Positions 20,201-46,837 of a stretch of DNA of 64,000 nt are shown in pieces. The notes under the pieces were generated by a model. The model had not been told where the DNA came from and did not search any database. It saw nothing but the letters and a program-made list of their open reading frames with translations. Location of the stretch: NCBI GenBank assembly GCA_048884965.1, contig JBHLQH010000019.1, positions 314 through 64,313 on the forward strand. The letters run 5' to 3'. Position 1 is the first letter of the stretch, and every line of letters starts with the position of its first letter. The position numbers and the translations under genes were made by a program. Source of the DNA: Candidatus Thorarchaeota archaeon. GTDB taxonomy: Archaea; Asgardarchaeota; Thorarchaeia; Thorarchaeales; Thorarchaeaceae.

Positions 20201-21956
20201 TCTTACTGATCTCGAATACGATGGATAATGTAAGGGTGATAGAGATTGATAGGAGCTCTGAGAACCACTCCATGATAGTCGAGATGACACCAGCTCCACC
20301 AGGTGAGAGGAAAGCCGATATGCTTAGGGAGAACGAAGCATCCAGCTCGAATCTGAGACCCCATTCACGTACATCAATGAATGCTCTATCAGTATTGGAT
20401 GCATCCATAGGTGGAAAGGCAAGCTTTAGCCAAGCATGTCCAAAGAACTCGATAGTGAACTGACCCATGAGACCTTGTACCCAGTCGTTCCCGGTTGGGA
20501 GGAAGGCACAGACACCAAGGTCGATCTCCATCACAGGGATGATGTCTATGAACTTACGAATCTCAGTGAACTGCTCCTCAACGTCACCGAACTCGGACAT
20601 GTTCTTTCCTCCGAGTACTGCTTGATTCATAAAGCTCTCAAAGGGAGTCTTGTCTATCTCAAAGTCAGGTAGGAGCTTGATCCGAAGAACTGCGCCAAAG
20701 CTCGCAAAGTCAGAGCCCAGATTGATAGGAGTTCCCAATCTGAATAGGAATACTGGAACCAGCCCTGTCAGTTTGTCTTGGACAGGAGTATTGATGATCC
20801 AGTCGAAGAACTCGCCAATATACTCATCCACCTCATACCACGCATCGAGGATAAGCTGGTCAACCATGGACCAGAGATCGAACATCTGTCTGGGTAAGAG
20901 CTGTGGCATCCATGTTGCGAAATCATGGTTGGTGATGTTGAAGCCCTCATCAATGAACCATTCCTTAATCTGGTCCCGAGCGTCCTCGATGGCACCCTGC
21001 ATGTAATCATTCAGGTCCTCTGCTGCATCGATATGAATAGCTAGGTTTTGAAGTCCTAGGTCGATCATACTATATAACACGGTATCTATCAGCCATCCCA
21101 TGGGTCCTCCGACACCGCTGGTCGGTGCCATCTCACGTAGGCCGATGTAATCCTCACTCTGAGCGGGAATTCCCAGACGCATGATAGGCATTAGCTCCTC
21201 GCCCTTGTCATCGTATTGCTTCTCTTCGATGACCCATGATTCGGTGAGGGCGGGATCAGTGATTGGGTCTGGAATATGTTCGCCTGTGTATTCTTCAGGA
21301 ACGACTCCTTTTGCCATATACTCATTGATGTTATCAGAGAAATCTCTCAACACCGTCTCACGAAGGCATTCTCCTTTTGCAGCCCACGTTGGCTCGTCAG
21401 AAAGTGCCATTGTGTCAGCTACTTCCCAAAGTGCATACAAGCGCCCAAGTCGCACATCGATGACCTCGGAATCATCGACATGAAGGTTGGCAGGTTCACC
21501 AAGGTAGTCCTTAATGATGAAGGCGCTTCCAACGCCGAAGATATGCTCGATCCTTGGAAAGTCAGCTAAGGTTTCAGCAACAACTTTCCACGATGTGATT
21601 TCCTCTCTGAACATGAGACCGGCTTGGCAGCTTTGGAAATAGTAGATGGCATAGTCTGGGCGATACCTATCAAGTTCAGCTTCTAGTTGTAATATAGATG
21701 AAACATCAAAGGAATCAACAAGGATGCCGTTCTGGAGAAGAGGGTTCATCGAATCCAACAGCATCGCTCTTGCTTCCAGACACTCCTTGTCATAATAGAT
21801 ATGTATCAGAGCTGGAGTTGCCTTTGCGACCTGAGGTTCAACGACTTCCGGAATGGAAGCAGCTGAAACAGGGAACATCAATGATGAGCTTACAAGCATC
21901 ATCACGGTAATAATGACGACTACCTTGCGGAGTCCAACCTTCATATTCATAGACAT
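17211..21956 (-). CDS. Giant secreted, C-terminally anchored protein with a long array of thrombospondin-type-3-like Ca-binding repeats
   Basis: 1581-aa ORF. GGAGG lies 9 nt upstream of ATG 21956. The signal-like N-terminus is MSMNMKVGLRKVVVIITVMMLVSSSLMFPVSA. More than 25 D.D.D.L.D..E motifs (DTDGDGLNDKLE, DTDNDGLLDGEE, DSDGDGLDDGLE) occupy aa ~700-1505. The TM is FWMLAAILGGAGFIAGIIVPPVL, followed by a Lys/Ser/Thr-rich tail. Confidence 0.85.
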   Translation of the reverse strand: MSMNMKVGLRKVVVIITVMMLVSSSLMFPVSAASIPEVVEPQVAKATPALIHIYYDKECLEARAMLLDSMNPLLQNGILVDSFDVSSILQLEAELDRYRPDYAIYYFQSCQAGLMFREEITSWKVVAETLADFPRIEHIFGVGSAFIIKDYLGEPANLHVDDSEVIDVRLGRLYALWEVADTMALSDEPTWAAKGECLRETVLRDFSDNINEYMAKGVVPEEYTGEHIPDPITDPALTESWVIEEKQYDDKGEELMPIMRLGIPAQSEDYIGLREMAPTSGVGGPMGWLIDTVLYSMIDLGLQNLAIHIDAAEDLNDYMQGAIEDARDQIKEWFIDEGFNITNHDFATWMPQLLPRQMFDLWSMVDQLILDAWYEVDEYIGEFFDWIINTPVQDKLTGLVPVFLFRLGTPINLGSDFASFGAVLRIKLLPDFEIDKTPFESFMNQAVLGGKNMSEFGDVEEQFTEIRKFIDIIPVMEIDLGVCAFLPTGNDWVQGLMGQFTIEFFGHAWLKLAFPPMDASNTDRAFIDVREWGLRFELDASFSLSISAFLSPGGAGVISTIMEWFSELLSISITLTLSIVFEISKKYQGQGLPSLSTLLLDIIIGVTLHIRLLIVIFEGTFKVGLRFEMRSGILAGEPLMALAADPDPVIIHTLSDIATSTIGIYITLYCSLYFGIDLFFTSFGTHFGGPWTTTIDISASWGSSSYGEEAADLTDTDEDGLPDDFETRMSLLYGSLPGYTLADSSTFLDPLSADTDGDGLNDKLEIELNTAPWKVDSDDDLLTDYEEHVTFKTNPLLNDTDRDNLTDYQEVKVYHTSPFLIDTDGDMLYDWYEINTVYDVTLTKGTYGSVESVIIGGVSYDDRTDPLNPDTDNDGLLDGEEWDNGVEYCNETEVSMYQYVNFRWTHPLDADTDEDCVAWLYQGGGWGDPFAPTDDYIWDLHDGTEVFGQIAIIPDLEGYPEVKLVKTNPCNPDTDNDTAWGAVYLYLTDGNELARDPQWDPTNGDQDSDGLRDGYEQIGPGGSGTDAQNPDTDNDHLPDYEDWMLDTDPRNPDCDEDMVLDGDEYFLYGTNPLNNDTDRDGLTDGEELFFFYCNPLVRDSDYDGLTDGEEILIYLTDPLEADTDHDDLTDGYEIFYAHTDPRLWDTDNDRLGDGEELLVFNSDPLDWDTDHDSLDYPNENGSMTLPLSDGDEVLDYGTSPITMDTDADGLTDSQEIYLGLGWPGHDPVPLDPLNNDTDGDTLLDGTEMILENVSIITFPYEALTIVLRYGSCPVLNDTDGDGLDDGLELFYGTYPNNADSDDDRINDYNEIFVTHTNPMSNDTDGDELGDALESWEMISANTTPPEALMPPFFLAQANESWWPLYPTNVTDSDTDDDYLPDGLEYVYGLNPLEWDENGNGIADGFEYDFDGDGLSDGEEFYFEMTWMTPLPIGNDSSGLWHWNAAPGGFDNPDSDGDGLDDGLEVKVYGTDPTSTDTDGDGVPDNEEVALGQNPLVPITEGYPFWMLAAILGGAGFIAGIIVPPVLRFTVKKVGSLRSGDKTESKADSKKTTKKADKTEATDSKKTTKSSKTKSKKEGDTK

Positions 21957-24453: not shown

Positions 24454-24623
24454 TTTTTATTATGCCGGTATAATATTAATAAGAGTATCGGAACATTAGA
24501 ATTTTACTTGTATGAGCCTTTACACAAAAGATGCAATGATGAATTATCTTATATACATACAATTCGGGCGAAACTGTGGACTACATATAGTTACTTCAGT
24601 AACTCGAATGGGGTTAAGTGTTG

Positions 24624-25262
24624 AAGATGGCAAATGACAGTCCCGACATGGGACAAATCCTTGACAAGGCCGAGAACCTGATGAGCAATTCAAAATTCAG
24701 TGATGCTATAGAGGCATTGGAAAAGGCCGTTTCAATTGATCCAAACAATCGTATAGTTTGGGATAACGTTATTATTTGCAATCTAGAGCTCAAACGTCCA
24801 AAGAAAGCTCTAGAGGCAATGAACTCGATTTTGAATATCGACCCCACTGCATACCAAGTGTGGGCTGATAAGGCATACCTCCATTTCTTGCTGCAGGAGG
24901 ATGGTGAAGGTGTTGAAGCACTTCGCAATAGTCTCAAATTGAACCCAAGGAACTACCGAGATTGGTTTTTACTTGGATCAGTGTTCATGTCTAATGAACG
25001 ATGGGATGACGCACGAGATGCATTTCACAACGCATTACAACTTAATCCAACGGATTCAGCTGTATGGTACAATCTTGCTGCAGTCAACTACATGATAGGT
25101 GACTTTGGAGCGGCTCTTGGAGCTGCTGAACAAGCAACCTCTATTGACCCGACCATGGACCTTTCAGAGGATGAATGGCTTGAAGAACTCAAGGATACCT
25201 TTGAACCTTTCACTGATAGCGATGATGATGATTTGATGTTTGACTTGGCAGCAGGAAGCTAG
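24624..25262 (+). CDS. TPR-repeat protein with an acidic C-terminus
   Basis: The ORF track starts at TTG 24618, and ATG 24624 is in frame. Repeated TPR signatures are present (AIEALEKAVSIDPNN, ALEAMNSILNIDPTAYQVWADKAY, ALRNSLKLNPRNYRDWFLLG, AFHNALQLNPTDSAVWYNLA, AAEQATSIDP). Confidence 0.8.
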   Translation, partial: KMANDSPDMGQILDKAENLMSNSKFSDAIEALEKAVSIDPNNRIVWDNVIICNLELKRPKKALEAMNSILNIDPTAYQVWADKAYLHFLLQEDGEGVEALRNSLKLNPRNYRDWFLLGSVFMSNERWDDARDAFHNALQLNPTDSAVWYNLAAVNYMIGDFGAALGAAEQATSIDPTMDLSEDEWLEELKDTFEPFTDSDDDDLMFDLAAGS

Positions 25263-27304
25263 ACTTCCTTCTTCTTGGTCCTACGTCTCTTTTTCTTAGG
25301 CGGTACCTCAGAGACGGGCTCTTCGATTTTTGCATCCTCAGAAGCTTGATTTTTTGATTCCTCGGGAGCTTGATTCGAAGCTTCGACGGGAGCTTCCTTT
25401 TTCCCAGAGTCGCTCCCTTCAACACCCTTCAGAATAGCCAGTTCCTTTGATAGGCTTTGAATCTCGTCCTTCATCTTATGATATTGTGCAGCTTGTAATG
25501 CCTGTTCTATTGCCTCTGTAAGCTGCTTCGTTTCTCTCTGGAACTCTGCGATATTCTGAGGATTGGTTGTTTGTTCTTTTCGTTTCGTCAAAACACCTAG
25601 TAAACCTTTGATTGCAGAAGATGTTTCATCTTTCGTTAACACGACTTCTTGCGGCTCAGTTGTTGAAACACTCAAGATACGACCGATTTGATCCTTCAGA
25701 TGAACAAACTCATTCAATGCCAAAGCAAGAATCTCAACGACTTCTGCATCCTCTTCAGCGTCATCTATGCTTTTTTCCAATTTGGTAATTGCGTTGGTAA
25801 GAAATCCTTCTCGTTCTTGCAGTGATGATCGTTTCCTTTCAAGCCAACGCCACTCGCTTCTCACATTTTGAGTAAGGGTAAGTGCTTCTGTTATCTTCTC
25901 TTGGTATAGCTCGAACTTCTCCTGTGCTTCATGCCATTCTTGCTCAAGATTATCAGTAGCATGAGAAAGCTGATAGCTAAGGATGTGACCAGCTTGTGCT
26001 TCAGCTAATACACGACTCTCTTTGATGGCACGGGATGCTGCATTCCATATCCGCTCCAGCTCTACCTCATCCTTGCTTGATCTGCCCTCTCTATCAAACT
26101 CGTCTGAAATGACCATTATTTCCTTTGTAAGGTCTTCAATCTCTGATATTTTCGCACGGAGGAGTGAAAGTCCTAGTCTATCGTTCAACTCATTGGTCAA
26201 AGCCTCACGTTCAGAAGGCACTTCCAACAGAGCATGGGTATTATCAATCAAGAGTTGGAGTGCGTGCTCGTAGTCAGCCACGGCTTCATGATACTCAGCG
26301 TTCTGTATCTTGGCATCTCCCTGTTTTTGAAGATCTAAGACAGACTCAAGAACGTCATATGGAGATGTCTTTAGAAGACCAGGAGCATAGAGCATACCGT
26401 CCTCGGCGGATAAATCCAATGGTTGTTGGCTTAGGGTTATGGATACGATTAGAATCTTATCCGGAGTTGCCAAGAAGATATGTTGCTTATCTACTCGAAC
26501 ATGGAAAATCTTCGTGCCCTCAAGCTTGATTGTACCTATTCCAACTCCTTTCCTGAGATCCCAGATGGAAACTCTAGCAGTATTTGAGGATACCACGAGG
26601 TAGAGATCATTAGCCCACATCGAACCAATTACATTGCTTTCTAGAGCGGGTAAGGACTTGATCTGTGACCAATCTACACGATCCCATAACTTGATGTCAG
26701 CAGTAGTCAAGCCAGTAATTATGAAATGACTATTCCCAACTACCTTTGTACCCTTGTCTTTTTTCTCCAGGCGCTTGATTTCAGTGGGAGCTCCTTCACT
26801 TTCTAATTTCCAGACTACAGCTTCATCCTTGCTGGTTGATGTACAGATTATCTCCCCATCGCCCCAAAGATTGTTGATATCTGCCTTGAAAAGCTGCCAG
26901 CTTGAAGTATCATGCGATTCCTTCTTAATCGATACTAAGCGACCCTCCTTAGCGCCAACGTACAGCGAATCACCACGAAGTGTAGAGGTCACAGCAGAAT
27001 AGCTGAGTTCAAACCATCCAATCATACCCCATGAGTTCTTGTTCCAGACATAGACTCGCTTTTCACAAGTTGCGTAAACTTGATTATCATCAACATGAAC
27101 AGCCAGAGGAGGAGAACTGGTTTCACCTAGTTCAGCAACTAGTTGCCAGTCATCTCTTGACCAGACCCGTACCTTCATGTCATCGCACGCGGCATAAACG
27201 TATTTATCGTCGACATTTAGATAGACAGCGTCGCCCTCAAGTTGAGCTTCAACATGATGTTGCAGACGCGGTGAGGCCGCGTTACCTCCCGCTGATTTAG
27301 CCAT
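25259..27304 (-). CDS. WD40-like beta-propeller + long coiled coil + basic C-terminal tail
   Basis: 681-aa ORF. The N-terminal ~300 aa carry repeated blade-end motifs (VRVWSRDDW, VYVWNKNSW, AVVWKLES, IKLWDRVDW, VSIWDLRKG). Residues ~330-640 are heptad-rich and charged. The protein ends PPKKKRRRTKKKEV. Confidence 0.75.
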   Translation of the reverse strand: MAKSAGGNAASPRLQHHVEAQLEGDAVYLNVDDKYVYAACDDMKVRVWSRDDWQLVAELGETSSPPLAVHVDDNQVYATCEKRVYVWNKNSWGMIGWFELSYSAVTSTLRGDSLYVGAKEGRLVSIKKESHDTSSWQLFKADINNLWGDGEIICTSTSKDEAVVWKLESEGAPTEIKRLEKKDKGTKVVGNSHFIITGLTTADIKLWDRVDWSQIKSLPALESNVIGSMWANDLYLVVSSNTARVSIWDLRKGVGIGTIKLEGTKIFHVRVDKQHIFLATPDKILIVSITLSQQPLDLSAEDGMLYAPGLLKTSPYDVLESVLDLQKQGDAKIQNAEYHEAVADYEHALQLLIDNTHALLEVPSEREALTNELNDRLGLSLLRAKISEIEDLTKEIMVISDEFDREGRSSKDEVELERIWNAASRAIKESRVLAEAQAGHILSYQLSHATDNLEQEWHEAQEKFELYQEKITEALTLTQNVRSEWRWLERKRSSLQEREGFLTNAITKLEKSIDDAEEDAEVVEILALALNEFVHLKDQIGRILSVSTTEPQEVVLTKDETSSAIKGLLGVLTKRKEQTTNPQNIAEFQRETKQLTEAIEQALQAAQYHKMKDEIQSLSKELAILKGVEGSDSGKKEAPVEASNQAPEESKNQASEDAKIEEPVSEVPPKKKRRRTKKKEV

Positions 27305-27519
27305 AATATTCAGTCCCTACAAGTACCTTGAACGCTATTAAGTGAGTTTCGTTTCACAAATGATGTTTTAAGACTTTATTCAACCGTGCAAGTATCTTCT
27401 TTTGCCTTAAAAATGCCTAATTACTGAGGCTCAGACAGGTGATAAAGAATTAAAGGAATAAACACAGAACACACTTAAGACATACATCGTCTCAAGTAAC
27501 GCCTATTGGAGGTAGCTCA
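27305..27519. promoter_or_regulatory. Divergent intergenic region that must carry the promoters of the WD40/coiled-coil gene and the FtsZ-like operon
   Basis: Inferred from gene geometry only: 215 nt of AT-rich sequence between divergent starts. TATA-like candidates include CTTAAAAAT (~27406) and, on the minus strand, CTTAATAG (~27333-27340). GGAGG lies 7 nt before TTG 27520. Confidence 0.35.
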
Positions 27520-30207
27520 TTGGACACTAACAAGTGGAGACGAGAACTTGACAGAGTCTCGGAAATGAAAGGAATGCTGGTATCACTCAATCCCAGCCTT
27601 GAGGAACAGACAGGCCACCAAATTCGCCAGCTCTATGATGTCTTTGCAAGTCTTTCGAAGACAGACAACGAGCTGGGCACAGCTGGATTCATGGCAAAAC
27701 GGAAGTTTCAAACTCAACGTGATAAAATAGACAATGACCTCGAAGATATGTTCATGAGGATTGTACGTGAGTTCGCCGAGCTGTTTCGAAGAGAACATAG
27801 AGACATCATGGGATTGCTCCCAAAGCTGCAAGAGATGAAACCTGCAGAAGCGAAGGGCATCGCCTCAATCAGCCTTCCATCTGTAGGTGCAGGAGATATG
27901 GCAGATTTCGAAAGGCTCTACGAATTTGGAGAGGTTTTCTCCAAGAAATGCATTACGCTCAAGAATGATATGTCCAGAGAAGTCAAAGACCTCCTTGATG
28001 AGAACAATAGAACTGTTGAAACCTTTGAGCGGCATATCACTATTGACAGGGGAGAAGTTGCGACCAGCGTTTCTAATGAGGATGTTATTGGTCTATCTGT
28101 TACAGACCTCATCACTATGAATGATAAGCTCAAAGCAGAGAAGATCTATCTAGATGGCCGCAGAGGCGAAGTAGGCCGCATGCTTGGTGTTTCACTCATT
28201 GGTGATATAGAATCGCTTCAGGCATGGGTCGAAACATCTACTCGACTCGGGTTGGATTTGCCAATGGACTTCTCTCAGAAGCTAAGGATTCTAGCGAGAG
28301 AGGCATCAGGTGCTGAGAACCTTACAACCCTAATCAGTCTTGAGAGCCAAATGCATGCTTCAAGACTCCAGCTCGCAAATATGTTGAAGGATCGAATCAT
28401 CAACATGAAGCACGAAGTAACTACCAAGTTTGTTCAAGCTGGAATACCAACGACCGCGGATATTATTCCACAGGCACCTTCAATGGTAGTCGAGAATCAG
28501 GAAGTTCCAAGTCTATTATCATCATACCAGAAGATGGTAGAATGGGAAGGTCAAGTAAAGATATCCCTCAAAGACAAGATAGAGGAACTCCTTGACGATG
28601 TAGAGAAGGCCACCGATCAACCAGAGGATACAGGTATCGCAGATGTTGTCGCAACGAGGGAATTTGTCGCTGAGTCAAATAAAGCACTCAAGAAAGGCGA
28701 GCTCGATAAAATGATCGATATCTATCAGAAAGCCTCTGCAATGTCGGAAGACCACAAGAAGCACGTGAAGGACCTAATCAGATCATACCTCACACGTTTC
28801 AATGAGCTAGCTACTTCTGCTGACAGAGTGCTTGATTACGCCCAGCTAAGCAAGAAGGCTCCCAAAGTCGAGGAGCTAGAGGGTGGCATTGTCTTTCACA
28901 TACAGTCACTTGAGAACCTGAGGAATGCTGTCGAGAGCGGCGTTGCCACTTTTCGAGATGCATGCCAACAGGAGATCGAAGCAATCATTCAGGATTTGCA
29001 AACCATAAAGCCAGCCTACGCAGAGATATTCATGCCTATCATTACAGAACTTGACGAAGGAGAGGTACGAATCAGGCGGCTCAATGAATTCGCAGAGATT
29101 CGCTCAGAGATGCGTACAATAAAGGAAACCATCCTAGCAAAGGCAAAGGAATCGCTTGAGAACCTCAGATACAGATTGGGTGTCAAGATCCGACTTGCCG
29201 CAGCCAAGCTAATGGGAGCTGGCGTTGAGATACCAATTGAGGTGCAGGATGCCATAAGTGAACTGAACAGCATCGGAGTGGCTGCTGAAACGGTGTTTAG
29301 CCTTCCGCAACAAGCCAGAAAGATGATCGAGCTCTATGAGAAGAAGATCACTGGAAACGTACTCGAATCCCTCAAAGAGGAAGCTACAGCCCTTCAGGAT
29401 TCGTTCACCAAGGCAGCTTCAATCGGCGTACCATTAGGTGAGGAACTCACCATTCTAATGAACATCATTGACACACCACCTACGGAGCTAGAAGAAGCAG
29501 CTGACGCCTTTGACAGACTAGCGGGTCTCACTACATCCAAGGATATACAGAAGCGTGTGAGGGAACGCGGAAATGATGCCTATCGCCAGATCAATGGTGC
29601 AATATCAATCTTCGAGGAACAAGGTATGCCTGATTTCGTTAAGAGACTGAAGGCATTACTTAACCAAGTCCCTCAGAAGATGCAGGCAGAGTCCAAGTAC
29701 ATCACTGAACCCCTTGAGGTCTGTTTGACTCTAGCTAATGTTCAAGATGAGATGCTCGGAGTCATGAAGAGCATCGCAGCGAAGGACAAAGAGGCACATG
29801 AGAAGGAGATTCGCGAAAGAAGTAACTATTACTCAACAATCGAGCGCGTCTATGAGAATCATCCCAAGGACTTCAGCAAGTTAATCTATCCTGTCGATAG
29901 GATGATCCAGATAGAGAAAGACCTAGAATTTGCTGATCAACTCGATAAGGCACTTGATTACTTCAATGAACTCAGAACACTGAGAACCGAGTGGGTTGAC
30001 AAAGCAGAGAAGATGGATGACTGGCACAAGTCAATGAAGATGTTCCTGACAGGATATAGTCCAACAGCTAGCATCGATGAAAGAGAGAAGTTCATGGATG
30101 ATGCGATCAGGAAGATTAGAGAAACCTATAGTAGGGAAGACATAAGCTCATATCTAGCCTGGGCCATCAGAGAGATTGCTCACTCAATGGCAAAAGGAAG
30201 AAAATAA
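27520..30207 (+). CDS. Large all-helical protein of unknown family, first gene of the FtsZ/tubulin-like operon (TTG start)
   Basis: 895-aa ORF. GGAGG lies 7 nt upstream. The composition is charged and helix-prone throughout, with no TM segment or signal and no recognisable catalytic motif. A G(I/V/M/L)..(I/L)P-type motif recurs 5 times. Confidence 0.8.
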   Translation: MDTNKWRRELDRVSEMKGMLVSLNPSLEEQTGHQIRQLYDVFASLSKTDNELGTAGFMAKRKFQTQRDKIDNDLEDMFMRIVREFAELFRREHRDIMGLLPKLQEMKPAEAKGIASISLPSVGAGDMADFERLYEFGEVFSKKCITLKNDMSREVKDLLDENNRTVETFERHITIDRGEVATSVSNEDVIGLSVTDLITMNDKLKAEKIYLDGRRGEVGRMLGVSLIGDIESLQAWVETSTRLGLDLPMDFSQKLRILAREASGAENLTTLISLESQMHASRLQLANMLKDRIINMKHEVTTKFVQAGIPTTADIIPQAPSMVVENQEVPSLLSSYQKMVEWEGQVKISLKDKIEELLDDVEKATDQPEDTGIADVVATREFVAESNKALKKGELDKMIDIYQKASAMSEDHKKHVKDLIRSYLTRFNELATSADRVLDYAQLSKKAPKVEELEGGIVFHIQSLENLRNAVESGVATFRDACQQEIEAIIQDLQTIKPAYAEIFMPIITELDEGEVRIRRLNEFAEIRSEMRTIKETILAKAKESLENLRYRLGVKIRLAAAKLMGAGVEIPIEVQDAISELNSIGVAAETVFSLPQQARKMIELYEKKITGNVLESLKEEATALQDSFTKAASIGVPLGEELTILMNIIDTPPTELEEAADAFDRLAGLTTSKDIQKRVRERGNDAYRQINGAISIFEEQGMPDFVKRLKALLNQVPQKMQAESKYITEPLEVCLTLANVQDEMLGVMKSIAAKDKEAHEKEIRERSNYYSTIERVYENHPKDFSKLIYPVDRMIQIEKDLEFADQLDKALDYFNELRTLRTEWVDKAEKMDDWHKSMKMFLTGYSPTASIDEREKFMDDAIRKIRETYSREDISSYLAWAIREIAHSMAKGRK

Positions 30208-30225
30208 TCTAAGGAGATAGAAACA

Positions 30226-31620
30226 ATGTCAAATGGTGTTACAAGACTCGGAGAAGACGAAACCAAAGCAGCCGAGGTCTTCGCAATTGGTGTGGGAGAG
30301 TGTGGTTCCAATATCGTTGGCTCATACCTTAAAGCAAGCAAAGACAGGCGACTCCCATCAAGAGTCCGAGGATATCTCCTTATGAACACAGACAGAGCAG
30401 ACCTGACTAAGGTTCGTTCAAAATATGAGATTCCAAAGGAACACACCATGCTCTACGGTGCAAGTGAGATTGGTGTGGGTGGTCGTTTCATGGATGGCTA
30501 TAACGCTATCATAGAATCGAAGGATATCATCTTCGATCAACTAGGAGATCTTGGCTTTGAAGGTGTTTCAGGTTTCTGTATCTTCACCAGCCTCGGCGGT
30601 GGTACAGGTTGTGGCGGAACACCTGCTATCATCGAGCTACTCAAGCAAAGATTCCAAGAAGAGGAAGGACGACGTATCTTTGTGTATGTCATCGGAATCC
30701 TACCCTTCGAAGGACAGTCCAGTGAAGCCCTCAACAGTATATGGGCAGTATCACGATTGCTTCGTGCCCAGCTGCAGGAGAGAGGAGCTGATCTTACAAT
30801 TCTACTTAGCAACAGAACCATGCTAAAGCGTATTCTGCAATCGAGAAGAGCTGATAGCGTTGACTACCTCCAGAGAGAGTTAGAGGTTGACATCGCGGAT
30901 ATCGACTCTATTGAAACAATGGTACCATCAACACTAGATGAGGGTGGAGAGTTAGAAGCTAGAACTGAACAAGCATTCGTCGAGCTCGTTAACCCACTCG
31001 CACTTGACGTCGTTGAAGCTATGCTTTCACCAGGAGTATATGAACCCAACAAGGATGTCTTCCCGACCACAGACCTTGCAGACTATGCGCGCAAGCTTGA
31101 TCCAGTGGTCGTTCCAGCACTCTACCAAGATATCGGATTAATTCCTGACGCAGGTAGTATGCCAAAGCAATTGAAGACTATGATTGATTATGCAGTCAGG
31201 GAATGCAGCTATGCTGATGTCGGTGATGAGCCAAATGCTGAATCTGTCTACTATGTGTTCTCAGGACCTAGGCATATCAGCAAGGCAGAATATGGTATGC
31301 ATCTCAAAGAAGCGCTTGACAAGTTCATCGCTCCTGGAGCAGCAATCACTCCTTGCTATGTGCAGAGACATACCAAGGATCCCAAGACCGACTTACTTCT
31401 CCTGCTAGGTTTGCCAAAGATACCTGAGCTTGTGCAAATCATAAACGAAGCCACGCAACTCGTCAATCTACACAGTGGTGCTTCACCACTCAAGCAAAGC
31501 TGGTTCATGCGATCAAAGGGTGTCCAACGCAAGGAACTCGTTGACGCGATTGCGGACTTCCGAGAGCTATTCAGCTACTATATGACACCAGGATCTGGAG
31601 ATATGCAACAGGGCGTGTGA
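30226..31620 (+). CDS. FtsZ/tubulin-superfamily GTPase, divergent
   Basis: AAGGAG lies ~10 nt upstream. The ordered motifs are AIGVGECGSNIV (T1), MNTDRADL, GVGGRFMDG (T3-like), SLGGGTGCGGTPAI (T4, tubulin signature), LPFEGQSS (T5), LLSNRTML (T6) and TTDLADY (T7-like). A C-terminal domain of FtsZ-like layout follows (VYYVFSGPRHIS..LLLLLGLP). Confidence 0.8.
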   Translation: MSNGVTRLGEDETKAAEVFAIGVGECGSNIVGSYLKASKDRRLPSRVRGYLLMNTDRADLTKVRSKYEIPKEHTMLYGASEIGVGGRFMDGYNAIIESKDIIFDQLGDLGFEGVSGFCIFTSLGGGTGCGGTPAIIELLKQRFQEEEGRRIFVYVIGILPFEGQSSEALNSIWAVSRLLRAQLQERGADLTILLSNRTMLKRILQSRRADSVDYLQRELEVDIADIDSIETMVPSTLDEGGELEARTEQAFVELVNPLALDVVEAMLSPGVYEPNKDVFPTTDLADYARKLDPVVVPALYQDIGLIPDAGSMPKQLKTMIDYAVRECSYADVGDEPNAESVYYVFSGPRHISKAEYGMHLKEALDKFIAPGAAITPCYVQRHTKDPKTDLLLLLGLPKIPELVQIINEATQLVNLHSGASPLKQSWFMRSKGVQRKELVDAIADFRELFSYYMTPGSGDMQQGV

Positions 31621-31624
31621 AACC

Positions 31625-32698
31625 GTGTCTGACTCATTCAAGACTGAAGACCTCGTCGATAGGCTTCTACTCGTAGTTACCCTCAACTCTACACTGATTC
31701 ATTTTCTGATCAGCTCGCAGGTTGAAGGCTATGTGGACCCTGATAGGGTAGATTCTCTAACACAAGGACTGATCAAGACAAGGTCTTGGATCGAGGAAGC
31801 GACTACCTCGGAAACCATCCCTGCATCGACTTCAAACATCCTTAGCCTCATCGTCAAGAGGTTGACCCAGATTGAAAGCATCCTCCCCAAGCTTTCAGAG
31901 AAGGCAAAACAAGCTGAACAAGGAAAGACTCCAGCTGCAGAAATTCTATCACTTCTTGAAGGAAGTGGACCACAGCGAGAAAGCCAAATAACTGGCGATC
32001 AAAGAATTGTCCCAGTCGTTGGCGAAGAAGGAACAATTGTTCCATTGGTTTCGGATCAGCCAGAGGTCCCACGAGAGCCCTACAAAAGAGTCGAGATGGA
32101 AAACGATGAGTGGGGCATCATAGGGCAGACCCAGATGCTCATCCAGCAGTACAGCAAACGCTGTCATGTTCTACTACCTACCTTTTGGATGGAAGCTCTA
32201 CGAGAGCTCCATAAATATCAATCACAATCACAGTATCTCGGAGACACTATTGAGATACCAGCACGTATCTTGGCCAAGATCGTCAAAGGACTCCTAACTG
32301 AGGCACCAGGTGCACGATTGCTACAGGACCTCTCAAAGAAAAGGCCTCAGGAGAACTATCTGGACCCATCAGAGTCTGAACGTATCAACAGAGCGGTTTC
32401 TAAGTACTTCCAAGGTCTTGAAGGTGTTTTGACCGAGAATATGCCTTCCCCGAAAGACAAGATAATGGAAGCACAAAATGCTTTTGACGGATTTGGATGG
32501 GGTGGTCCAGAACTTGAAAAGCGGTTGATAAAACGTATAAATCAGCAATGTGAGGAAGCCATGCAGAGCGCTGAAGCGACGACCGATGTAGCCAGAGCAG
32601 CTGTCTATGCAGAAACTACGAAACTACTCTGCAAGCTGCAGCATGCCATTCTAGCTGAACCGAGACTACGTGAGATTCTAGCTGAAATGAAGCCATAG
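31625..32698 (+). CDS. Helical protein of unknown family, third gene of the FtsZ/tubulin-like operon (GTG start)
   Basis: 357-aa ORF starting 4 nt after the FtsZ-like stop. No TM segment and no recognised motif. The central linker is Pro/Glu-rich (VPVVGEEGTIVPLVSDQPEVPREPY). Confidence 0.65.
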   Translation: MSDSFKTEDLVDRLLLVVTLNSTLIHFLISSQVEGYVDPDRVDSLTQGLIKTRSWIEEATTSETIPASTSNILSLIVKRLTQIESILPKLSEKAKQAEQGKTPAAEILSLLEGSGPQRESQITGDQRIVPVVGEEGTIVPLVSDQPEVPREPYKRVEMENDEWGIIGQTQMLIQQYSKRCHVLLPTFWMEALRELHKYQSQSQYLGDTIEIPARILAKIVKGLLTEAPGARLLQDLSKKRPQENYLDPSESERINRAVSKYFQGLEGVLTENMPSPKDKIMEAQNAFDGFGWGGPELEKRLIKRINQQCEEAMQSAEATTDVARAAVYAETTKLLCKLQHAILAEPRLREILAEMKP

Positions 32699-36088: not shown

Positions 36089-36694
36089 ATGAGCCGGGTC
36101 GGAGTATTAATCAGCGGCAGAGGAACAAATCTTCAGGCTCTGATTGATGCACAAGAACAGGGGATGCTTGGTGGCCAGATTGTTGTAGTCATCAGCAATA
36201 AGAGTAAAGCTCAGGGACTGGAACGAGCTCGAAAGGCTGGAATAAAGACTGTAACGGTGACAAGGAAAGAATATCCCCAGCGCGAGGATTTTGATAGACA
36301 ACTGCTTTCAATCCTTAGACAAAATAATGTTGATCTGGTCGTTCTAGCAGGTTTCATGCGTATCCTTACGAACATCTTCATCTCAGAGTTCGCAAATAGG
36401 ATAATCAATGTACATCCATCTCTGTTACCCTCATTTAGAGGGGTGGAAGCACAATGGCAAGCTGTTGATTTTGGTGTCAGAGTGTCAGGGTGTACTACGC
36501 ATTTCGTCAGCTTAGAAATGGACGCAGGGCCTATTATATTGCAACGAGCAGTGCCGGTTCACCCAAATGATGATGGTGAATCCCTCTCAATGCGGATATT
36601 GAAGGAAGAGCATGAGATCCTCGTTGAATCTGTTCGTCTGTTCTGTGATGGCAAGCTCAAGATAGAAGGTCAAAGAGTTATCATTGTGGAGTGA
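36089..36694 (+). CDS. purN: Phosphoribosylglycinamide formyltransferase
   Basis: Motifs: VLISGRGTNLQALID, VLAGFMRIL, INVHPSLLPSFRG, and GCTTHFV..DAGPII. Confidence 0.9.
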   Translation: MSRVGVLISGRGTNLQALIDAQEQGMLGGQIVVVISNKSKAQGLERARKAGIKTVTVTRKEYPQREDFDRQLLSILRQNNVDLVVLAGFMRILTNIFISEFANRIINVHPSLLPSFRGVEAQWQAVDFGVRVSGCTTHFVSLEMDAGPIILQRAVPVHPNDDGESLSMRILKEEHEILVESVRLFCDGKLKIEGQRVIIVE

Positions 36695-36702
36695 GAATCA
36701 TT

Positions 36703-38100
36703 ATGTGTGGAGTTCTAGGAATTCTCGGAAACTATCCGATCCGAGCATCAAGAGATTTACTGCTGCTCCTTACTCATCGAGGTCAAGATGCTTCAGGGCT
36801 TCTCTGGTCTGGAGAAGAAGGATTTGTCTCTAGTAAGACAATGGGCAGTCCATCAGTAATTGAAGTACCTGAGAGTGAAAGCAGTATCATAATCGGCAGC
36901 ACAAGGTATCCCACTTCTGGAAAGAAGGTAGCCACAGAGGACGATTTGAGAACCTTTGTTGGTCCGTTCTGTTCAGCAACACTTGCTCTCACACATAATG
37001 GAAATATTACAAACATGGGACAGGTTTCTGAGAAGCAATACGATTGTGATTCTGAATTCATAACGGATAGGCTTGCACGTCATCTATCAGAGAACAACAA
37101 TGATCTAGCAAAGGCATTCAGATTGATTGACAAGGAAATCGACGGAGCATACAGCCTGATTGGAATCCATGGAGAAAGAATGTTCGCATATCGTGATTCA
37201 AGAGGATTCAAACCTCTTGTGTTTGGACGAACAGCGGATCATACCTTCGTTGCTTCAGAGAGCACTGTTCTTGATATGGCAGGAGCCAATTTGGAACGCG
37301 ATGTATATCCTGGCGAGTTATTGATTTTTAATCCAGATATGTCGATGGAGTCCCATTCAATCTCTCAAGGTAAGTCACACTCACATTGCTTTTTCGAGTA
37401 CGTTTACTTTGCCCACCCTGCAGCAACGATGGAAAGTCATCTGGTGTATGACACTCGATTTCGCTTGGGAAGATCTCTAGCAAATAAATTCAAGAAAATG
37501 GGACTCGAATTGCCAGATTATGTCGTTCCAGTACCCGATACAAGTAGACCCTCAGCCCAAGCTCTTGCAGAAGAGCTTGGTGTCCCCATGAGAGAGATTA
37601 TTCTAAAGAATCGGTATCTTGGTCGGACATTCATCGCGAGATCACAAGAAGAACGCGATGCAATGGCAAAATCGAAGTATATCTATCTTGAAGATAAAAT
37701 TCGAGGAAAGAGCATCCTCGTCGTAGATGATAGTATCGTCAGAGGGACCACTGCAAAGATGATTGTCGCAGATCTTAGAAAGAGAGGTGCCCAGACAGTC
37801 TATTTTGCTGCGACTTGTCCGCCACAAACACACCCGTGCTACTATGGGATTGATATTGCTACCGATAAGGAGCTCATTGCTTCCGATACTGACATCCAAG
37901 GTATTGCTGAATATATTCAAGCAGATGCTCTAATCTATCAAGACATGGTAGGTCTTGTCAACGCCATAGAGATGAAAGACCTCTGCCTTGCATGCTTGGA
38001 TGGCGATTATCCCACTGAGCATGCAAAGAGAATTCGAAGAAGCATCGAGGAGAATGGTGCGTCTGTAGATGGCAGGGACTATGAGAGGTCACTAGAATGA
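36703..38100 (+). CDS. purF: Amidophosphoribosyltransferase
   Basis: ATG 36703 gives MCGVLGI (Ntn-Cys directly after Met). The ORF track starts at GTG 36691. The PRPP loop is VVDDSIVRGTT, and PCYYGID is also present. Confidence 0.9.
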   Translation: MCGVLGILGNYPIRASRDLLLLLTHRGQDASGLLWSGEEGFVSSKTMGSPSVIEVPESESSIIIGSTRYPTSGKKVATEDDLRTFVGPFCSATLALTHNGNITNMGQVSEKQYDCDSEFITDRLARHLSENNNDLAKAFRLIDKEIDGAYSLIGIHGERMFAYRDSRGFKPLVFGRTADHTFVASESTVLDMAGANLERDVYPGELLIFNPDMSMESHSISQGKSHSHCFFEYVYFAHPAATMESHLVYDTRFRLGRSLANKFKKMGLELPDYVVPVPDTSRPSAQALAEELGVPMREIILKNRYLGRTFIARSQEERDAMAKSKYIYLEDKIRGKSILVVDDSIVRGTTAKMIVADLRKRGAQTVYFAATCPPQTHPCYYGIDIATDKELIASDTDIQGIAEYIQADALIYQDMVGLVNAIEMKDLCLACLDGDYPTEHAKRIRRSIEENGASVDGRDYERSLE

Positions 38101-39050
38101 AGATTGGAACAATAGCAAGCCATAGCGCGTTGAATATCATTGCAGGAGCAAAGGCAGAGGGTTTTGAAACTGTACTTGTGTCAACTCCTGATAGAACTGA
38201 GTTCTACAGGTCATTCAATTTGGATGGAGTAATAGTAGAAGTCGATGCATTTTCAGAGATTCTTGATTTAGACTTGGAGGATGTAATTTGGATCCCACAT
38301 GGTTCCTTTGTTGCCTATATAGGAGCTGAGAAGATACTGGAGTCTACATTGCCACTCTTTGGTAACAAACAGTTACTGAGATGGGAAGAGGATCGCCAAT
38401 TAAAATCAAAGCTGCTTAGGGAGGGAGGATGGAATGTGCCTCATGAGTTTGCATCCGTGGAAGAAGTAGACCGACCAGTCATTGTGAAGACCTATGGAGC
38501 CGCTGGAGGTGAAGGTTATTTTATTGCAAAGGACAAGGAGGAAATCCATAGGAAACTGGACCCCGAGAAGCAATATTCGATACAGGAGTATGTCGTTGGT
38601 ACAAAAGTATTCGTGACCTACTTCAATTCTCTTGCTCGACACCGATTAGAAGTATTTGGAGCAGATATCAGATATGAAACAGATGCTGACGCGAATCTCA
38701 GATTTGATGATAGACCCTCCTTCGTTGTGATTGGGAATCTACCAATGGTTCTCAGAGAATCCACGCTGCACCAGTATTACGAACTTGGAAAGACCTTTGT
38801 TGAGGGATTCGAAAAACTTACGGGTCAGAAGCTACCCGGAGCTTTCTGTATAGAGACAATCATTGATAGGAACCAGAGAATCTGCGCCTTCGAATTTAGT
38901 GGACGTATTGTCGCAGGGACTAATGTTTGGATACCCTCCTCACCTTATTCATACCTTCAGTTCGGAGAGCAAATGTGGATGGGGAGGAGGATTGCACGCG
39001 AAATAAAAGAACTCAAAGGGGAGGATAGGCTTAATGAAGCGATACTATAG
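38097..39050 (+). CDS. purP: 5-formaminoimidazole-4-carboxamide ribonucleotide (FAICAR) synthetase, archaeal PurP family
   Basis: MKIGTIASHSALNIIAGAKAEGFETVLV and the ATP-grasp layout match the PurP family as I recall it. Its start overlaps the purF stop (ATGA). Confidence 0.75.
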   Translation: MKIGTIASHSALNIIAGAKAEGFETVLVSTPDRTEFYRSFNLDGVIVEVDAFSEILDLDLEDVIWIPHGSFVAYIGAEKILESTLPLFGNKQLLRWEEDRQLKSKLLREGGWNVPHEFASVEEVDRPVIVKTYGAAGGEGYFIAKDKEEIHRKLDPEKQYSIQEYVVGTKVFVTYFNSLARHRLEVFGADIRYETDADANLRFDDRPSFVVIGNLPMVLRESTLHQYYELGKTFVEGFEKLTGQKLPGAFCIETIIDRNQRICAFEFSGRIVAGTNVWIPSSPYSYLQFGEQMWMGRRIAREIKELKGEDRLNEAIL

Positions 39051-39122
39051 CAAGACTTACAAAGCCACTTCTTACCCCAGCCATCTCGTAGATGAACGGG
39101 TGTTCGGTCTTGAGGAGATGAT

Positions 39123-40196
39123 ATGACGAAGCCTACGATTGGGATGCTTGGGTCCCACAGTGCAGAGGAGATAGCAGTTTCAGCCAAGTCACATGGTTTT
39201 GCCACTGCTGTCGTCTGTCAGAAGGGGCGAGAGAAGCTATATTCTGTATACAACAAGCATCTCTTTGATGACATACTCATTCTCGATAGTTTTAGAGACA
39301 TATTGCTCGATGAGAACCAGCAATTTCTCAAAGACCTAGATACCCTTTGGATGCCAAATCGCTCGTTCAGCGTATATGTTGGCTATGATAACATTGAGAA
39401 GAACTTTGAGCTTCCAATGTATGGAAATCGGAACATATTGCGTGTTGAGGAACGAGGATTTCCAAGGGATCAATATTGGCTCCTAGAGGAGTCAGGCGTA
39501 CGTATTCCAAAATCATACCAGCCCAATGAAATCGATACCCTCGTAATCGTTAAGGTGCAACAAAAGGACAATCCATTAGAGAGAGCATTCTTCTATGCCA
39601 CATCTCCGAATGACTATGACAATATCTCACAATCAATGATTGCTAGCGGAACAATTCGTGAAGAAGATCTAAATGATGCCACTATCGAGGAGTTCGTTAT
39701 TGCACCACGTTTCAATGCGAATTTCCAAGCATATGGCTTGAATGATGTGTTTGGAGATCTTGATTTCGTTGGATTTGATGATCGAGTTCAGACGAATCTT
39801 GGCGGTTTGCTCAATCTACCTGCAAAGGATCAGCTAACCCTTGATTTTATTCCCATGAATGAAGAGGTTGGTCATAAAGGTGTGACCATGCGAGAGAGCA
39901 AGAAACCTCTTGTGTATACTGCAGCAGAACAATTCATCTCCGGTGTGAAGAAGCACTTCCCTCCCAAGATGATTGGACTATTCTCTCTACAAGGAGCACT
40001 TACGGAGAGATCGGAATTCATCGTTTTTGATCTTAGTCCTAGAGTCCCAGGTGCTCCATGTGTTGGCCCCACAAGTCCAGAGATGAGGCGACTCAGTCTC
40101 AAAATGAAACGACCAGTTGAATCGCCTTTAGACTTGTGTATGATAGAGATAGACAAAGCGGTTCAGGACAAGCGTCTTGATGAAATCACTACTTGA
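39123..40196 (+). CDS. Second PurP-family ATP-grasp paralogue
   Basis: TIGMLGSHSAEEIAVSAKSHGFATAVVC parallels the N-terminus of the upstream PurP. GGAG lies 7 nt upstream. At 357 aa it is longer than the first copy (317 aa). Confidence 0.7.
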   Translation: MTKPTIGMLGSHSAEEIAVSAKSHGFATAVVCQKGREKLYSVYNKHLFDDILILDSFRDILLDENQQFLKDLDTLWMPNRSFSVYVGYDNIEKNFELPMYGNRNILRVEERGFPRDQYWLLEESGVRIPKSYQPNEIDTLVIVKVQQKDNPLERAFFYATSPNDYDNISQSMIASGTIREEDLNDATIEEFVIAPRFNANFQAYGLNDVFGDLDFVGFDDRVQTNLGGLLNLPAKDQLTLDFIPMNEEVGHKGVTMRESKKPLVYTAAEQFISGVKKHFPPKMIGLFSLQGALTERSEFIVFDLSPRVPGAPCVGPTSPEMRRLSLKMKRPVESPLDLCMIEIDKAVQDKRLDEITT

Positions 40197-40226
40197 TGAA
40201 ATTGAAATGAATGAGGAACGTGGAAA

Positions 40227-41195
40227 ATGGATCTAGTTCATGAAGGTAAAGCAAAGAAAGTCTTCCGTGACGAGGCATCATCTGATAATGTCATTATTGA
40301 ATTCACAGACAATGTGACTGCTGGTGATGGAGAGAAGCATGATGTTATTGCAGGGAAAGGTAAGCTTGCATGCGATTTGAGTGATTTCTTCCTTCGATTT
40401 CTAAGTGCGAAGGGAATTGACACCCACTATATCAAGAGGATGAATGAAACAAGCTTGCGATGCAAATTGGTCACAATATTACCCTTGGAGGTTGTCTGCA
40501 GGAATATTGCGGCTGGTTCTTTTTGTAGAAGATATGGCATAGAAAAAGGGACTGCTCTGGCTTCACCACTTATAGAATTCTTCCTCAAAGATGATTCCTT
40601 ACACGATCCTCTGATATCAAGCGATGCGGCAATTCGACTAAAGCTGGTAACACAGGTGGAGCTTGAATTCATGAAATCTGTTGCATTGTCAGTCAATCAC
40701 TATTTATCTGAACTTCTGAAACAGGTTAATCTCACTCTAGTCGATTTCAAGCTAGAATTCGGTAAAACATCGAAAGGGACCATCCTTCTAGCAGATGAGA
40801 TTTCCGGGGACACAATTCGTGTATGGAATGAGAAAGGCGAGTCCTATGACAAAGACCTCTATCGCAAAGGTGAAGGGGACATCACCGTGGCATATTCATA
40901 CCTGCTCGGAGAGCTCAACAAAACCAAACAGAATGACATCAAAATCAGAAACGAGATACTTCACGTTATGATAATGCCAAAGGATGGTATAAAGAATCCA
41001 CCTGGAGAAGTAACGAAGACGGCTCTAGTGCGTTTGGGATTCTCCTATCCAAACATTGTGCGAGTTGGTAAGATGTTTGAGATTCAGATAAACCATCCAA
41101 TCACCTCTGAGATTCTCAATCAGCTTACTCTCATGAACATGAAGCTCCTTTCCAATCCAATCGCAGAAAAGCACGAAGTGAGGCTGGATATGTGA
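40227..41195 (+). CDS. purC: SAICAR synthetase fused to a PurS-like C-terminal domain
   Basis: The PurC part contains HEGKAKKVF, LPLEVVCRNIAAGS, and LLADEISGDTIRVW. The C-terminal ~85 aa (nt ~40950-41192) are VMIMPKDGIKNPPGEVTKTALVRLGF..VRVGKMFEIQI..LLSNPIAEKHEV, which is the PurS pattern. Confidence 0.8.
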   Translation: MDLVHEGKAKKVFRDEASSDNVIIEFTDNVTAGDGEKHDVIAGKGKLACDLSDFFLRFLSAKGIDTHYIKRMNETSLRCKLVTILPLEVVCRNIAAGSFCRRYGIEKGTALASPLIEFFLKDDSLHDPLISSDAAIRLKLVTQVELEFMKSVALSVNHYLSELLKQVNLTLVDFKLEFGKTSKGTILLADEISGDTIRVWNEKGESYDKDLYRKGEGDITVAYSYLLGELNKTKQNDIKIRNEILHVMIMPKDGIKNPPGEVTKTALVRLGFSYPNIVRVGKMFEIQINHPITSEILNQLTLMNMKLLSNPIAEKHEVRLDM

Positions 41196-41890: not shown

Positions 41891-41894
41891 AGGC

Positions 41895-44063: not shown

Positions 44064-44069
44064 AGGAAA

Positions 44070-46759: not shown

Positions 46760-46837
46760 CGGAATCACTGTCACTAGTCAACCAAGAGGTAATGGATATA
46801 AGCAAAGGTCTTGCGAAGCCAGCTCGGAGGTTCATTG

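Follow-up and report, generated by a model that had tools for sequence, protein, structure and literature searches.

The window analysed here is a stretch of 64,000 nucleotides from a Candidatus Thorarchaeota archaeon (contig JBHLQH010000019.1, positions 314 to 64,313), and the subject of this work is a gene at 30226..31620 on its plus strand, which starts with ATG and codes for a GTPase of the tubulin/FtsZ superfamily. The product, 464 amino acids (aa) long, was characterised from the list of open reading frames (ORFs), profile searches, a structure model and a tree and was assigned to the Asg.Tub clade, and the gene lies between the genes of two partner proteins in a three-gene operon. The clade has already been in print since 2023, and going by sequence its members would represent a distinct variant of the tubulin-superfamily cytoskeletal filament. 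An earlier reading of the same DNA, referred to below as the original prediction, had proposed a 464-aa product from this reading frame and had described it as a divergent FtsZ/tubulin-superfamily GTPase; the reading frame is exactly as claimed. The composition of the window is ordinary, with a GC content of about 0.44-0.47 around the tubulin-like gene, and an Rfam scan of the window gave no matches.

The Asg.Tub gene and its operon

All the sequence motifs on which the original prediction was built were found in the translation at the positions it had given. The statements on conservation made here come from a 31-sequence, cross-class alignment of the family. In the T1 loop GVGECGSN (aa 22-29; 30289..30312, plus strand) G22, G24, E25, G27 and N29 are invariant and C26 is present in at least 90% of the sequences. 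The family Glu of this loop corresponds to Gln in tubulin and CetZ, and the Cys is as in the tubulin GQCG. The strings NTDRADL and LPFEGQSS occupy aa 54-60 and aa 159-166. The T4 signature SLGGGTGCGGTPAI (aa 122-135; 30589..30630, plus strand) contains the family-specific Cys129, and in the alignment G124-G126, G128, C129, G130 and G131 are invariant or nearly so. The T4 signature of the superfamily follows the PROSITE-type pattern [SAG]-G-G-T-G-[SA]-G. In the GGGTGCG of the family the backbone glycines and the Thr are invariant and the [SA] position is occupied by Cys, so that the pattern is broken to the letter but kept in its general sense; this Cys occurs in 131 of 134 family members as against 7 of 110 outgroup proteins. 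The T6 region LLSNRTML (aa 193-200; 30802..30825, plus strand) has the invariant Asn196. The T7-like loop with the start of helix H8, TTDLADY (aa 281-287; 31066..31086, plus strand), was located from the translation, the alignment and an AlphaFold2 (AF2) model, and reads P-T-T-D-x-x-D across the family with T282, D283 and D286 invariant. The string formed by T7 and H8 is T-T-D-L-A-D-Y-x-x-x-L-x-P, and its D-x-x-[DE] spacing equals that of N-x-D-F-A-D in the T7 of FtsZ and of N-x-D-L-x-E in α-tubulin. The Cys residues in T1 and T4, the Thr at the start of T7 and the retained acidic pair, all singled out by the original prediction, are present and conserved in the family as a whole.

Between T6/H6 and the core helix H7 there is a family-specific insert (aa 201-247; 30826..30966, plus strand), which was delimited from the AF2 model, the alignment and the spacing of the flanking elements: 60 aa separate the T6 Asn from the H7 Asn, compared with 18 aa in two CetZ proteins. 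In the model it is predicted to form two extra short helices (aa 209-219 and 226-232) followed by a disordered stretch of low confidence (aa 234-240). The insert is present in all family members with a length of 37-56 aa and is the most variable block of the alignment, its net charge ranging from -6 to +4 with a median of -2. The extra residues between T6 and T7 had been anticipated by the original prediction and are borne out by the spacing; the strong acidity which it had ascribed to them is a trait of Thorarchaeota and not of the family.

At the other end of the protein the AF2 model, residue conservation and hhalign alignment to the C-terminal region of CetZ point to three conserved surface helices (aa 400-452; 31423..31581, plus strand). 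The helices, aa 400-415, 421-431 and 435-452, are confidently predicted, and H416, S420, W426, F427, K431, G432 and L448 are invariant in the alignment, which also shows a conserved block HSG..LK..WF.RSKG here. This region is a candidate surface for binding of the partner proteins. A helical C-terminal extension of about 60 aa had been expected; the helices are there in the model, and the region is an extension relative to FtsZ only, the C-terminal part of CetZ being alignable to it.

The gene upstream (27520..30207, plus strand), characterised from its ORF, an AF2 model and profile searches, has a TTG start with a GGAGGT box before it at 27508-27513 on the same strand, and codes for an acidic, soluble, all-α protein of 895 aa. 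Its TAA codon at 30205-30207 is followed by a gap of only 18 nucleotides before the ATG of the tubulin-like gene, and inside the gap, 9 nucleotides before the ATG, lies a Shine-Dalgarno-like AAGGAG (30211..30216, plus strand). The gene downstream (31625..32698, plus strand), defined by its ORF and family homology, begins with GTG 4 nucleotides after the tubulin-like stop and codes for a soluble protein of 357 aa. From a scan of GTDB species representatives 80 loci were kept, including those of Thor-, Sif-, Borr- and Hermodarchaeota. It was found that the upstream partner is adjacent and on the same strand in 62 of the 63 loci with room for it (in the 63rd it is 550 bp away), and the downstream partner is adjacent in 77 of 77. 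The triad was also seen in cross-class loci of Heimdallarchaeota, of a group with about 60% identity, of 'Asgardarchaeia', of Hodarchaeales, of another lineage and of Baldrarchaeia, with upstream homologues directly 5' of the tubulin-like gene in loci L001, L003-L006 and L008. The upstream proteins are homologous to one another across the classes, as are the downstream proteins, and the adjacency was confirmed independently by consecutive NCBI locus tags. Where the triad is complete, in 59 loci, conservation is without exception highest in the tubulin-like protein. Its median identity is 88% in Thor-like loci, where the upstream and downstream partners reach 61% and 65%, and it is 61% in more distant lineages, where the partners show 30% and 27%.

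Neither partner gave anything above threshold in the Pfam, NCBIfam, PHROGs, PADLOC and PDB profile searches, and only sub-threshold Pfam matches of the coiled-coil type were obtained for the upstream one. Both are acidic and soluble and have no transmembrane segment. The upstream partner varies in length from 870 to 1311 aa across the family, and the protein of the window has an isoelectric point of 5.15. Its AF2 model, built from Thorarchaeota sequences only, consists of about 14 helices of 30-45 aa; the predicted local distance difference test score (pLDDT) is 84 and the predicted template modelling score (pTM) is 0.38, by which the overall shape is uncertain. A Foldseek search with this model gave a best E of 0.5 (dynein stalk, Umb toxin and γ-TuRC GCP; probability at most 0.18), and these were set aside as non-specific matches of long helices. 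An upstream-partner homologue (P0413, JGI) is labelled 'tryptophanyl-tRNA synthetase'. The orthologue in the window is 83% identical to it and has no tRNA-synthetase match in Pfam or NCBIfam, and the label looks like a misannotation. In the downstream partner a variable helical N-terminal part and a likewise variable linker of low complexity precede a conserved domain of about 200 aa at the C-terminus, through which the homology across the classes runs and in which D161, P185, P228, L232, G293, E298, R300 and K356 are invariant. A stray BLAST match had raised the idea that the two partners are related to each other; this was rejected at an hhalign probability of 0.5%.

Superfamily placement and limits of the family

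The Pfam family Tubulin (PF00091, cutoff 33 bits) recognises aa 17-201 of the tubulin-like protein with 71.6 bits and E=1.3e-19, and of its 190 model positions those from 1 to 187 are aligned. With TIGR00065, the equivalog model of FtsZ, the score is 34.1 bits against a cutoff of 295.2 and aa 12-141 alone are aligned; the protein fails as an FtsZ by this measure. FtsZ_C (PF12327), Tubulin_C (PF03953) and CetZ_C (PF21011) did not match it even at E<=10. As positive controls, the FtsZ protein P0260 scored 51 bits to FtsZ_C and the CetZ proteins P0161, P0163 and P0164 scored 167, 184 and 60 bits to CetZ_C.

An AF2 model of the protein, built with the 31-sequence family alignment, has a pLDDT of 82.2 and a pTM of 0.83. 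It shows a two-domain layout with a GTPase domain, H7 at aa 242-270, T7 at about aa 271-283, H8 at aa 284-288 and a β-sheet activation domain. A Foldseek search of the PDB with this model returned 1029 matches at E<=1e-3, of which the top 50 all belong to tubulin or CetZ families; FtsZ is absent from these 50. The leaders are effectively tied at about 1e-17 and comprise OdinTubulin (7evh, 1.9e-17), CetZ (3zid, 2.2e-17), γ-tubulin, β-tubulin, CetZ (4b45) and BtubA/B. The TM-score normalised to the target is 0.78 for CetZ 4b45, and the leading matches have 13-19% identity. By sequence the best PDB matches are CetZ, first 4b46, whose E of 1e-9 in a single-sequence search falls to 5.6e-12 when the family profile is used, and then 3zid and 4b45. 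OdinTubulin, BtubA/B, AtubA and γ-tubulin follow, and all these matches are confined to the GTPase domain. HMMER aligns no more than about aa 84-200 to tubulins, with E from 1e-5 to 1e-2. Profile-profile alignment by hhalign gave 99.8% probability and E=3e-28 against CetZ over 378 columns including the C-terminal domain, and it is by this means only that the C-terminal likeness to CetZ is visible. Against the FtsZ profile the probability was 99.3%, with the alignment restricted to the N-terminal 163 columns and ending at T6. The protein shares with FtsZ (FtsZ1/FtsZ2) the N-terminal GTPase domain, the NTD..L and PF.EG motifs and D-x-A-D in T7; unlike FtsZ it has no FtsZ_C and no conserved C-terminal tail peptide. 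Taking sequence and model together, it is a true tubulin/FtsZ-superfamily GTPase by fold. The model puts it structurally on the CetZ/tubulin side of the superfamily, and CetZ is its nearest named relative by sequence and profile.

The protein belongs to Asg.Tub, as judged from its match to the clade member OLS26264.1 of Heimdallarchaeota LC_3 (P0114 in our set; E=8.5e-144, 50% identity over 97% of the query). Asg.Tub was described from four sequences, KXH77455.1, OLS30664.1, OLS26264.1 and PWI48967.1 (Santana-Molina, del Saz-Navarro & Devos 2023, Front Microbiol, PMC9871819). In the supplement alignment of that paper KXH77455.1 (Thorarchaeales) and PWI48967.1 share the T1, T4, T7 and H7 strings, and the Thor AB_25 contig, one of our loci (L054), encodes a protein with 89% identity to that of the window. 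The authors presented the clade as a novel CetZ-like group in Asgardarchaeota whose position was unstable, now with tubulins and now with CetZ. Its C-terminal hidden Markov model matched no other family, and its neighbours were described as 'unknown genes', mostly coiled-coil (PMC9871819). It has since been used as an outgroup under the description 'CetZ-related Asgard archaeal clade' (bioRxiv 10.64898/2026.02.15.705738). The original prediction had placed the protein outside all the familiar subfamilies; this stands, with the addition that the clade itself already has a name. As far as the searched literature shows, what is new beyond the 2023 description is the pan-Asgard breadth, the sharp isolation, the synapomorphies, the fixed three-gene module, the two orphan partner families and the structure model.

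A search of a collection of 5.8 billion proteins found 156 relatives, almost all annotated as 'hypothetical protein'. Their identity to the window protein is 85-98% in Thorarchaeota, about 60% in a second group and about 50-55% in Hodarchaeales, Heimdallarchaeota, Hermodarchaeota and 'Asgardarchaeia'. In the scan of GTDB species representatives 128 species-level genomes from at least seven named lineages carry a relative. An hmmsearch with the family profile, exhaustive over 1.84 billion cluster representatives, gave 723 and 489 bits for full-length family representatives (the second from Baldrarchaeia and the most divergent of the family), 154 bits for an intermediate, P0145, and at most 75 bits for other full-length matches including CetZ, these through the GTPase domain only. 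In a neighbour-joining (NJ) tree of 118 sequences the family is monophyletic with 97% bootstrap and lies outside the CetZ clusters. Its attachment to P0145/P0156 has 27% support and all deeper nodes have less than 10%; the mean distance within the family is 0.60 and the minimum distance to any outgroup is 1.40. The synapomorphies of the family are the T4 Cys (GGGTGCG), a Thr in T7 and an insert of about 42 aa; its T1, GxGECGSN, is likewise family-specific. Nesting on short branches inside FtsZ1/2 or CetZ was thus not observed, and the fold was recovered by profile and model alike.

It could nevertheless be argued that Asg.Tub is a fast-evolving CetZ orthologue with a cell-shape function (rod and motility morphogenesis), its separate clade being a long-branch artefact. 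The PDB sequence matches, the hhalign result and the TM-score given above all favour such a relationship, and some metagenome-assembled genomes (MAGs) carry the annotation 'Tubulin-like protein CetZ' on relatives. Asg.Tub resembles CetZ (PDB 4b45, 4b46, 3zid; Duggin et al. 2015) in the two-domain fold with a C-terminal helical region, in the logic of a homopolymer from a single gene and in coexistence with FtsZ1/2. However, true CetZs score 60-184 bits with PF21011, which has no match here. The family is monophyletic and does not nest in the CetZ cluster, the deeper NJ nodes being below 10%, and an unnamed non-CetZ group, described below, aligns to it equally well. Specialists draw the CetZ boundary at the Thermococcales clade and class the Asgard sequences as 'non-canonical TSF proteins', TSF standing for tubulin superfamily (Brown & Duggin 2023), and the gene neighbourhoods published for CetZ and for Asg.Tub show no relation to each other (PMC9871819). 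Asg.Tub has GECG in T1 where CetZ has GQAG/GQCG. Its T4 Cys, T7 Thr and pre-H7 insert are all family-specific, and CetZ has not been described as part of a fixed, obligatory operon with two partners of its own. We consider the CetZ explanation unlikely, though it is the one that fares best among the rivals to a separate Asg.Tub lineage.

A second explanation holds that Asg.Tub is a stem or sister lineage of the true tubulins, a CetZ-tubulin intermediate that would form multi-protofilament tubes with partners resembling microtubule-associated proteins. OdinTubulin heads the Foldseek ranking, with γ/β-tubulin and BtubAB within one order of magnitude of CetZ, so that the true tubulins (OdinTubulin 7evb-7evh; AtubA/B 9f6t, 9hxc; BtubA/B-BtubC 5o09) are equal-best structural matches. 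Published trees by several methods put Asg.Tub between CetZ and the tubulins (PMC9871819), the T1 Cys is tubulin-like (GxCG), the model has three C-terminal helices where tubulin has H11-H12, and at about 5e-5 the family profile also picks up Asgard AtubA, BtubA/B and γ-tubulin. The operons of BtubAB-BtubC and AtubAB(C) likewise couple a tubulin to accessory or paralogous proteins. Against this, the identity to tubulins is 13-17%, Tubulin_C is not matched, and the tubulin matches are limited to about 100 residues around T3-T5. The insertions and deletions together with mid-point rooting were argued to speak against tubulin affiliation (PMC9871819), and our NJ tree gives no support to any deep placement. 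Asg.Tub is moreover encoded by a single gene and not by an A/B pair forming a heterodimer, and its partners are unrelated to BtubC, a TPR protein, and have no Pfam repeat match. A tubulin stem lineage is in our view improbable.

Some relatives deserve mention in their own right. A Hodarchaeota MAG (prefix ACFFB3) has two Asg.Tub paralogues, P0069 and P0118, indicating a duplication in the Heimdall/Hod lineage. The remote sister P0145 (7001-8374 of locus L007) keeps the T4 GGTGCG with GIGEGGGN in T1, lies downstream of SMC-ScpA and is without the large upstream partner. A 262-aa ORF with an N-terminal transmembrane helix (8361-9149 of the same locus) overlaps the 3' end of its gene. This ORF scores only 5.5 bits to the downstream partner (E=0.002, database of five sequences), a marginal similarity, and homology is not claimed. 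An unnamed metagenomic group (P0159, P0160, P0166, P0174, P0185, P0186, P0190, P0191, P0197, P0209 and P0262) is marked by an N-terminal YTRW, T1 GEGGGR, T4 GGGTGNG and T7 V-I-D-V-x-D-Y. It aligns to Asg.Tub by hhalign with 99.8% probability over 341 columns, as close as CetZ. When this group was compared with the Halo.Tub of PMC9871819, its motif string was not found in the supplement, and one Halo.Tub sequence is longer (at least 560 aa, from a residue range of 337-560).

Genomic setting of the triad

The source of the window is a Thorarchaeota chromosome, and the loci of two relatives lie on closed Thorarchaeota chromosomes. The neighbours of the triad are housekeeping genes, which differ between classes, and the PHROGs and PADLOC searches gave no matches at the locus. 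The locus is chromosomal and not mobile. A 681-aa WD40 β-propeller gene (25259-27304, minus strand) is divergent from the triad, with a TPR gene (24618-25262, plus strand) beside it. These two stand next to the triad in about 41-43 of the 80 loci, mostly Thor-labelled, and are absent from six cross-class loci. The WD40, TPR, acetyl-CoA synthetase and FMN dehydrogenase genes were therefore rejected as members of the module, their recurrence being synteny at the level of Thorarchaeota only and none of the four recurring in the cross-class loci.

Genes for small GTPases of the Arf/Ras/RagA families were noticed within 7 kb of the triad in four other loci: L001 (102-1037), L004 (3532-4113), L005 (8516-10729, 11134-12000 and 14544-15338) and L006 (1-917). 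The one in L004 immediately precedes the gene of the upstream partner, in the same orientation. This linkage occurs in Heimdall, Hod and 'Asgardarchaeia' loci, and a BLAST-detectable Arf-like gene was found in 1 of 80 other loci. It may be lineage-specific or due to chance, or may follow from the abundance of such GTPases in Asgard genomes.

Elsewhere in the window two overlapping giant ORFs on the minus strand (11341-17214 and 17211-21956) code for 1957 and 1581 aa with NHL, FG-GAP, β-propeller and TSP3 repeats. Their GC content is 0.52 as compared with about 0.44, and they are probably huge surface or adhesion proteins. A 1067-aa HEAT/ARM-repeat protein is encoded at 3698-6901 on the plus strand, 23 kb from the tubulin-like gene. 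One of its matches, to the ARM repeats in PF25767 (tubulin-specific chaperone D), falls just below threshold (28.5 bits, cutoff 29.7) and is probably generic repeat similarity. A long cluster of co-directional purine-biosynthesis genes at 36089-48394 on the plus strand comprises a PurN-like formyltransferase, amidophosphoribosyltransferase, SAICAR synthetase-PurS, PurQ/PurL, an AIR carboxylase-AIR synthase fusion, GAR synthetase and GMP synthase, and it includes tandem DUF1246/DUF1297 (PurP-like) paralogues at 38097-39050 and 39123-40196.

Proposed filament system and its significance

Our data indicate that Asg.Tub could well be a GTP-driven, homopolymeric filament which uses the T7 acidic pair and is organised by its two operon partners, and we regard this as fairly probable. 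GTP binding, hydrolysis, polymerisation, interaction with the partners and the cellular role are all points which we infer. GTP would be bound through the complete T1-T6 pocket and the subunits would join head-to-tail into homopolymeric protofilaments. The T7 loop of one subunit, with D283 and D286, would enter the nucleotide site of the next and bring about GTP hydrolysis, giving a dynamic cytoskeletal filament. A homopolymer is proposed because there is one tubulin-like gene per operon and the T7 acidic pair is intact. Co-expression from the tight three-gene operon would supply two dedicated soluble all-α proteins, one large and elongated and the other smaller with its conserved C-terminal domain. 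They would probably attach to the filament, serving as adaptor, bundler or scaffold, and the C-terminal helices or the insert may provide the contact. Like CetZ, the filament could be involved in shaping the cell or in organising its interior rather than in a division ring. A non-division role is the more likely because the genomes with Asg.Tub also carry canonical FtsZ: Heimdall LC-3, for instance, has the Asg.Tub protein OLS26264.1 together with OLS21975.1, which shows the FtsZ-type motifs GVGGAGNN, NTDAQ and GGGTGTG in this order (PMC9871819 supplement).

Several observations weigh against this picture. In the full-text literature searches no functional or structural work on the clade was found, nor biochemical or imaging evidence for any family member. 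The Asn of T7 is replaced by an invariant Thr (T282) and the Ser/Thr/Ala of T4 by Cys, and either change could alter or weaken the handling of the nucleotide. The partners are without recognisable domains, so that the roles given to them are guesses, and the pTM of the upstream one leaves its shape uncertain. Membrane anchors and conserved C-terminal tail peptides are absent from all three proteins. At a paralogue locus of Hodarchaeales (L005, P0120) the upstream partner is kept and the downstream one is missing.

A GTPase that does not polymerise, or a pseudo-enzyme, which would serve as a switch in regulation or would form part of a static complex together with the two partners, would be in keeping with the departures from consensus at positions relevant to catalysis (Thr for Asn in T7, Cys for Ser/Thr in T4 and Glu for Gln in T1), with the large insert next to H7 and with the obligatory linkage to the partners. 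However, the full set of nucleotide motifs and the T7 acidic pair are invariant over phylum-level divergence, and the pair is needed only if one subunit completes the active site of another. It should be noted here that the tubulin-like protein is conserved far above its partners, as would be expected if it assembles with itself through many interfaces and the accessory factors evolve faster. We therefore rate this explanation as very improbable, slightly more so than a tubulin stem lineage. The least probable of all is that Asg.Tub segregates DNA or cargo as a motor like TubZ/PhuZ (type III partition), with the flanking proteins as TubR/TubY-like adaptor and regulator. The three-gene layout is superficially like tubRZ(Y) and the remote sister gene P0145 stands beside SMC-ScpA. 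However, those systems are plasmid- or phage-borne, with a DNA-binding adaptor (TubR) and a centromere, and they are not matched by a locus which lies on chromosomes, two of them closed, among housekeeping genes, has no PHROGs matches, encodes two acidic partners with no helix-turn-helix or other DNA-binding domain in Pfam, NCBIfam or PDB searches, codes for a protein for which TubZ/PhuZ is absent from the Foldseek top 50 and from the PDB sequence matches, and is inherited vertically across Asgard archaea under a strong constraint unlike that of a mobile element.

With a GTP-driven Asg.Tub filament as the preferred reading, a wider proposal can be put forward tentatively, as a possibility that falls somewhat short of an even chance. 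The triad would be an undescribed ancestral Asgard cytoskeletal system, that is, a separate filament lineage beside FtsZ1/2, CetZ and the true tubulins (Odin/Atub), with two dedicated filament-binding families of unmatched fold. The origin of the eukaryotic cytoskeleton from Asgard archaea is an active question, and the systems studied experimentally there so far are FtsZ1/2, OdinTubulin and AtubAB. According to the cited papers true tubulins are confined to a few Asgard lineages, and Asg.Tub is much more widespread in Asgard archaea and is under very strong constraint. The range of the triad takes in Thor- and Baldrarchaeia and extends to the Heimdall/Hod lineage, the one closest to eukaryotes, in which it has been duplicated. 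Its fixed operon defines a three-protein system that is directly testable by co-expression. If Asg.Tub forms no filaments, it would be a rare example of the tubulin fold in a different use. If it does form filaments with accessory proteins of their own, one more tubulin-type cytoskeleton would be added to the toolkit inferred for the archaeal ancestor of eukaryotes, and an ancestral system of this kind could also mark the transition from CetZ to tubulin.

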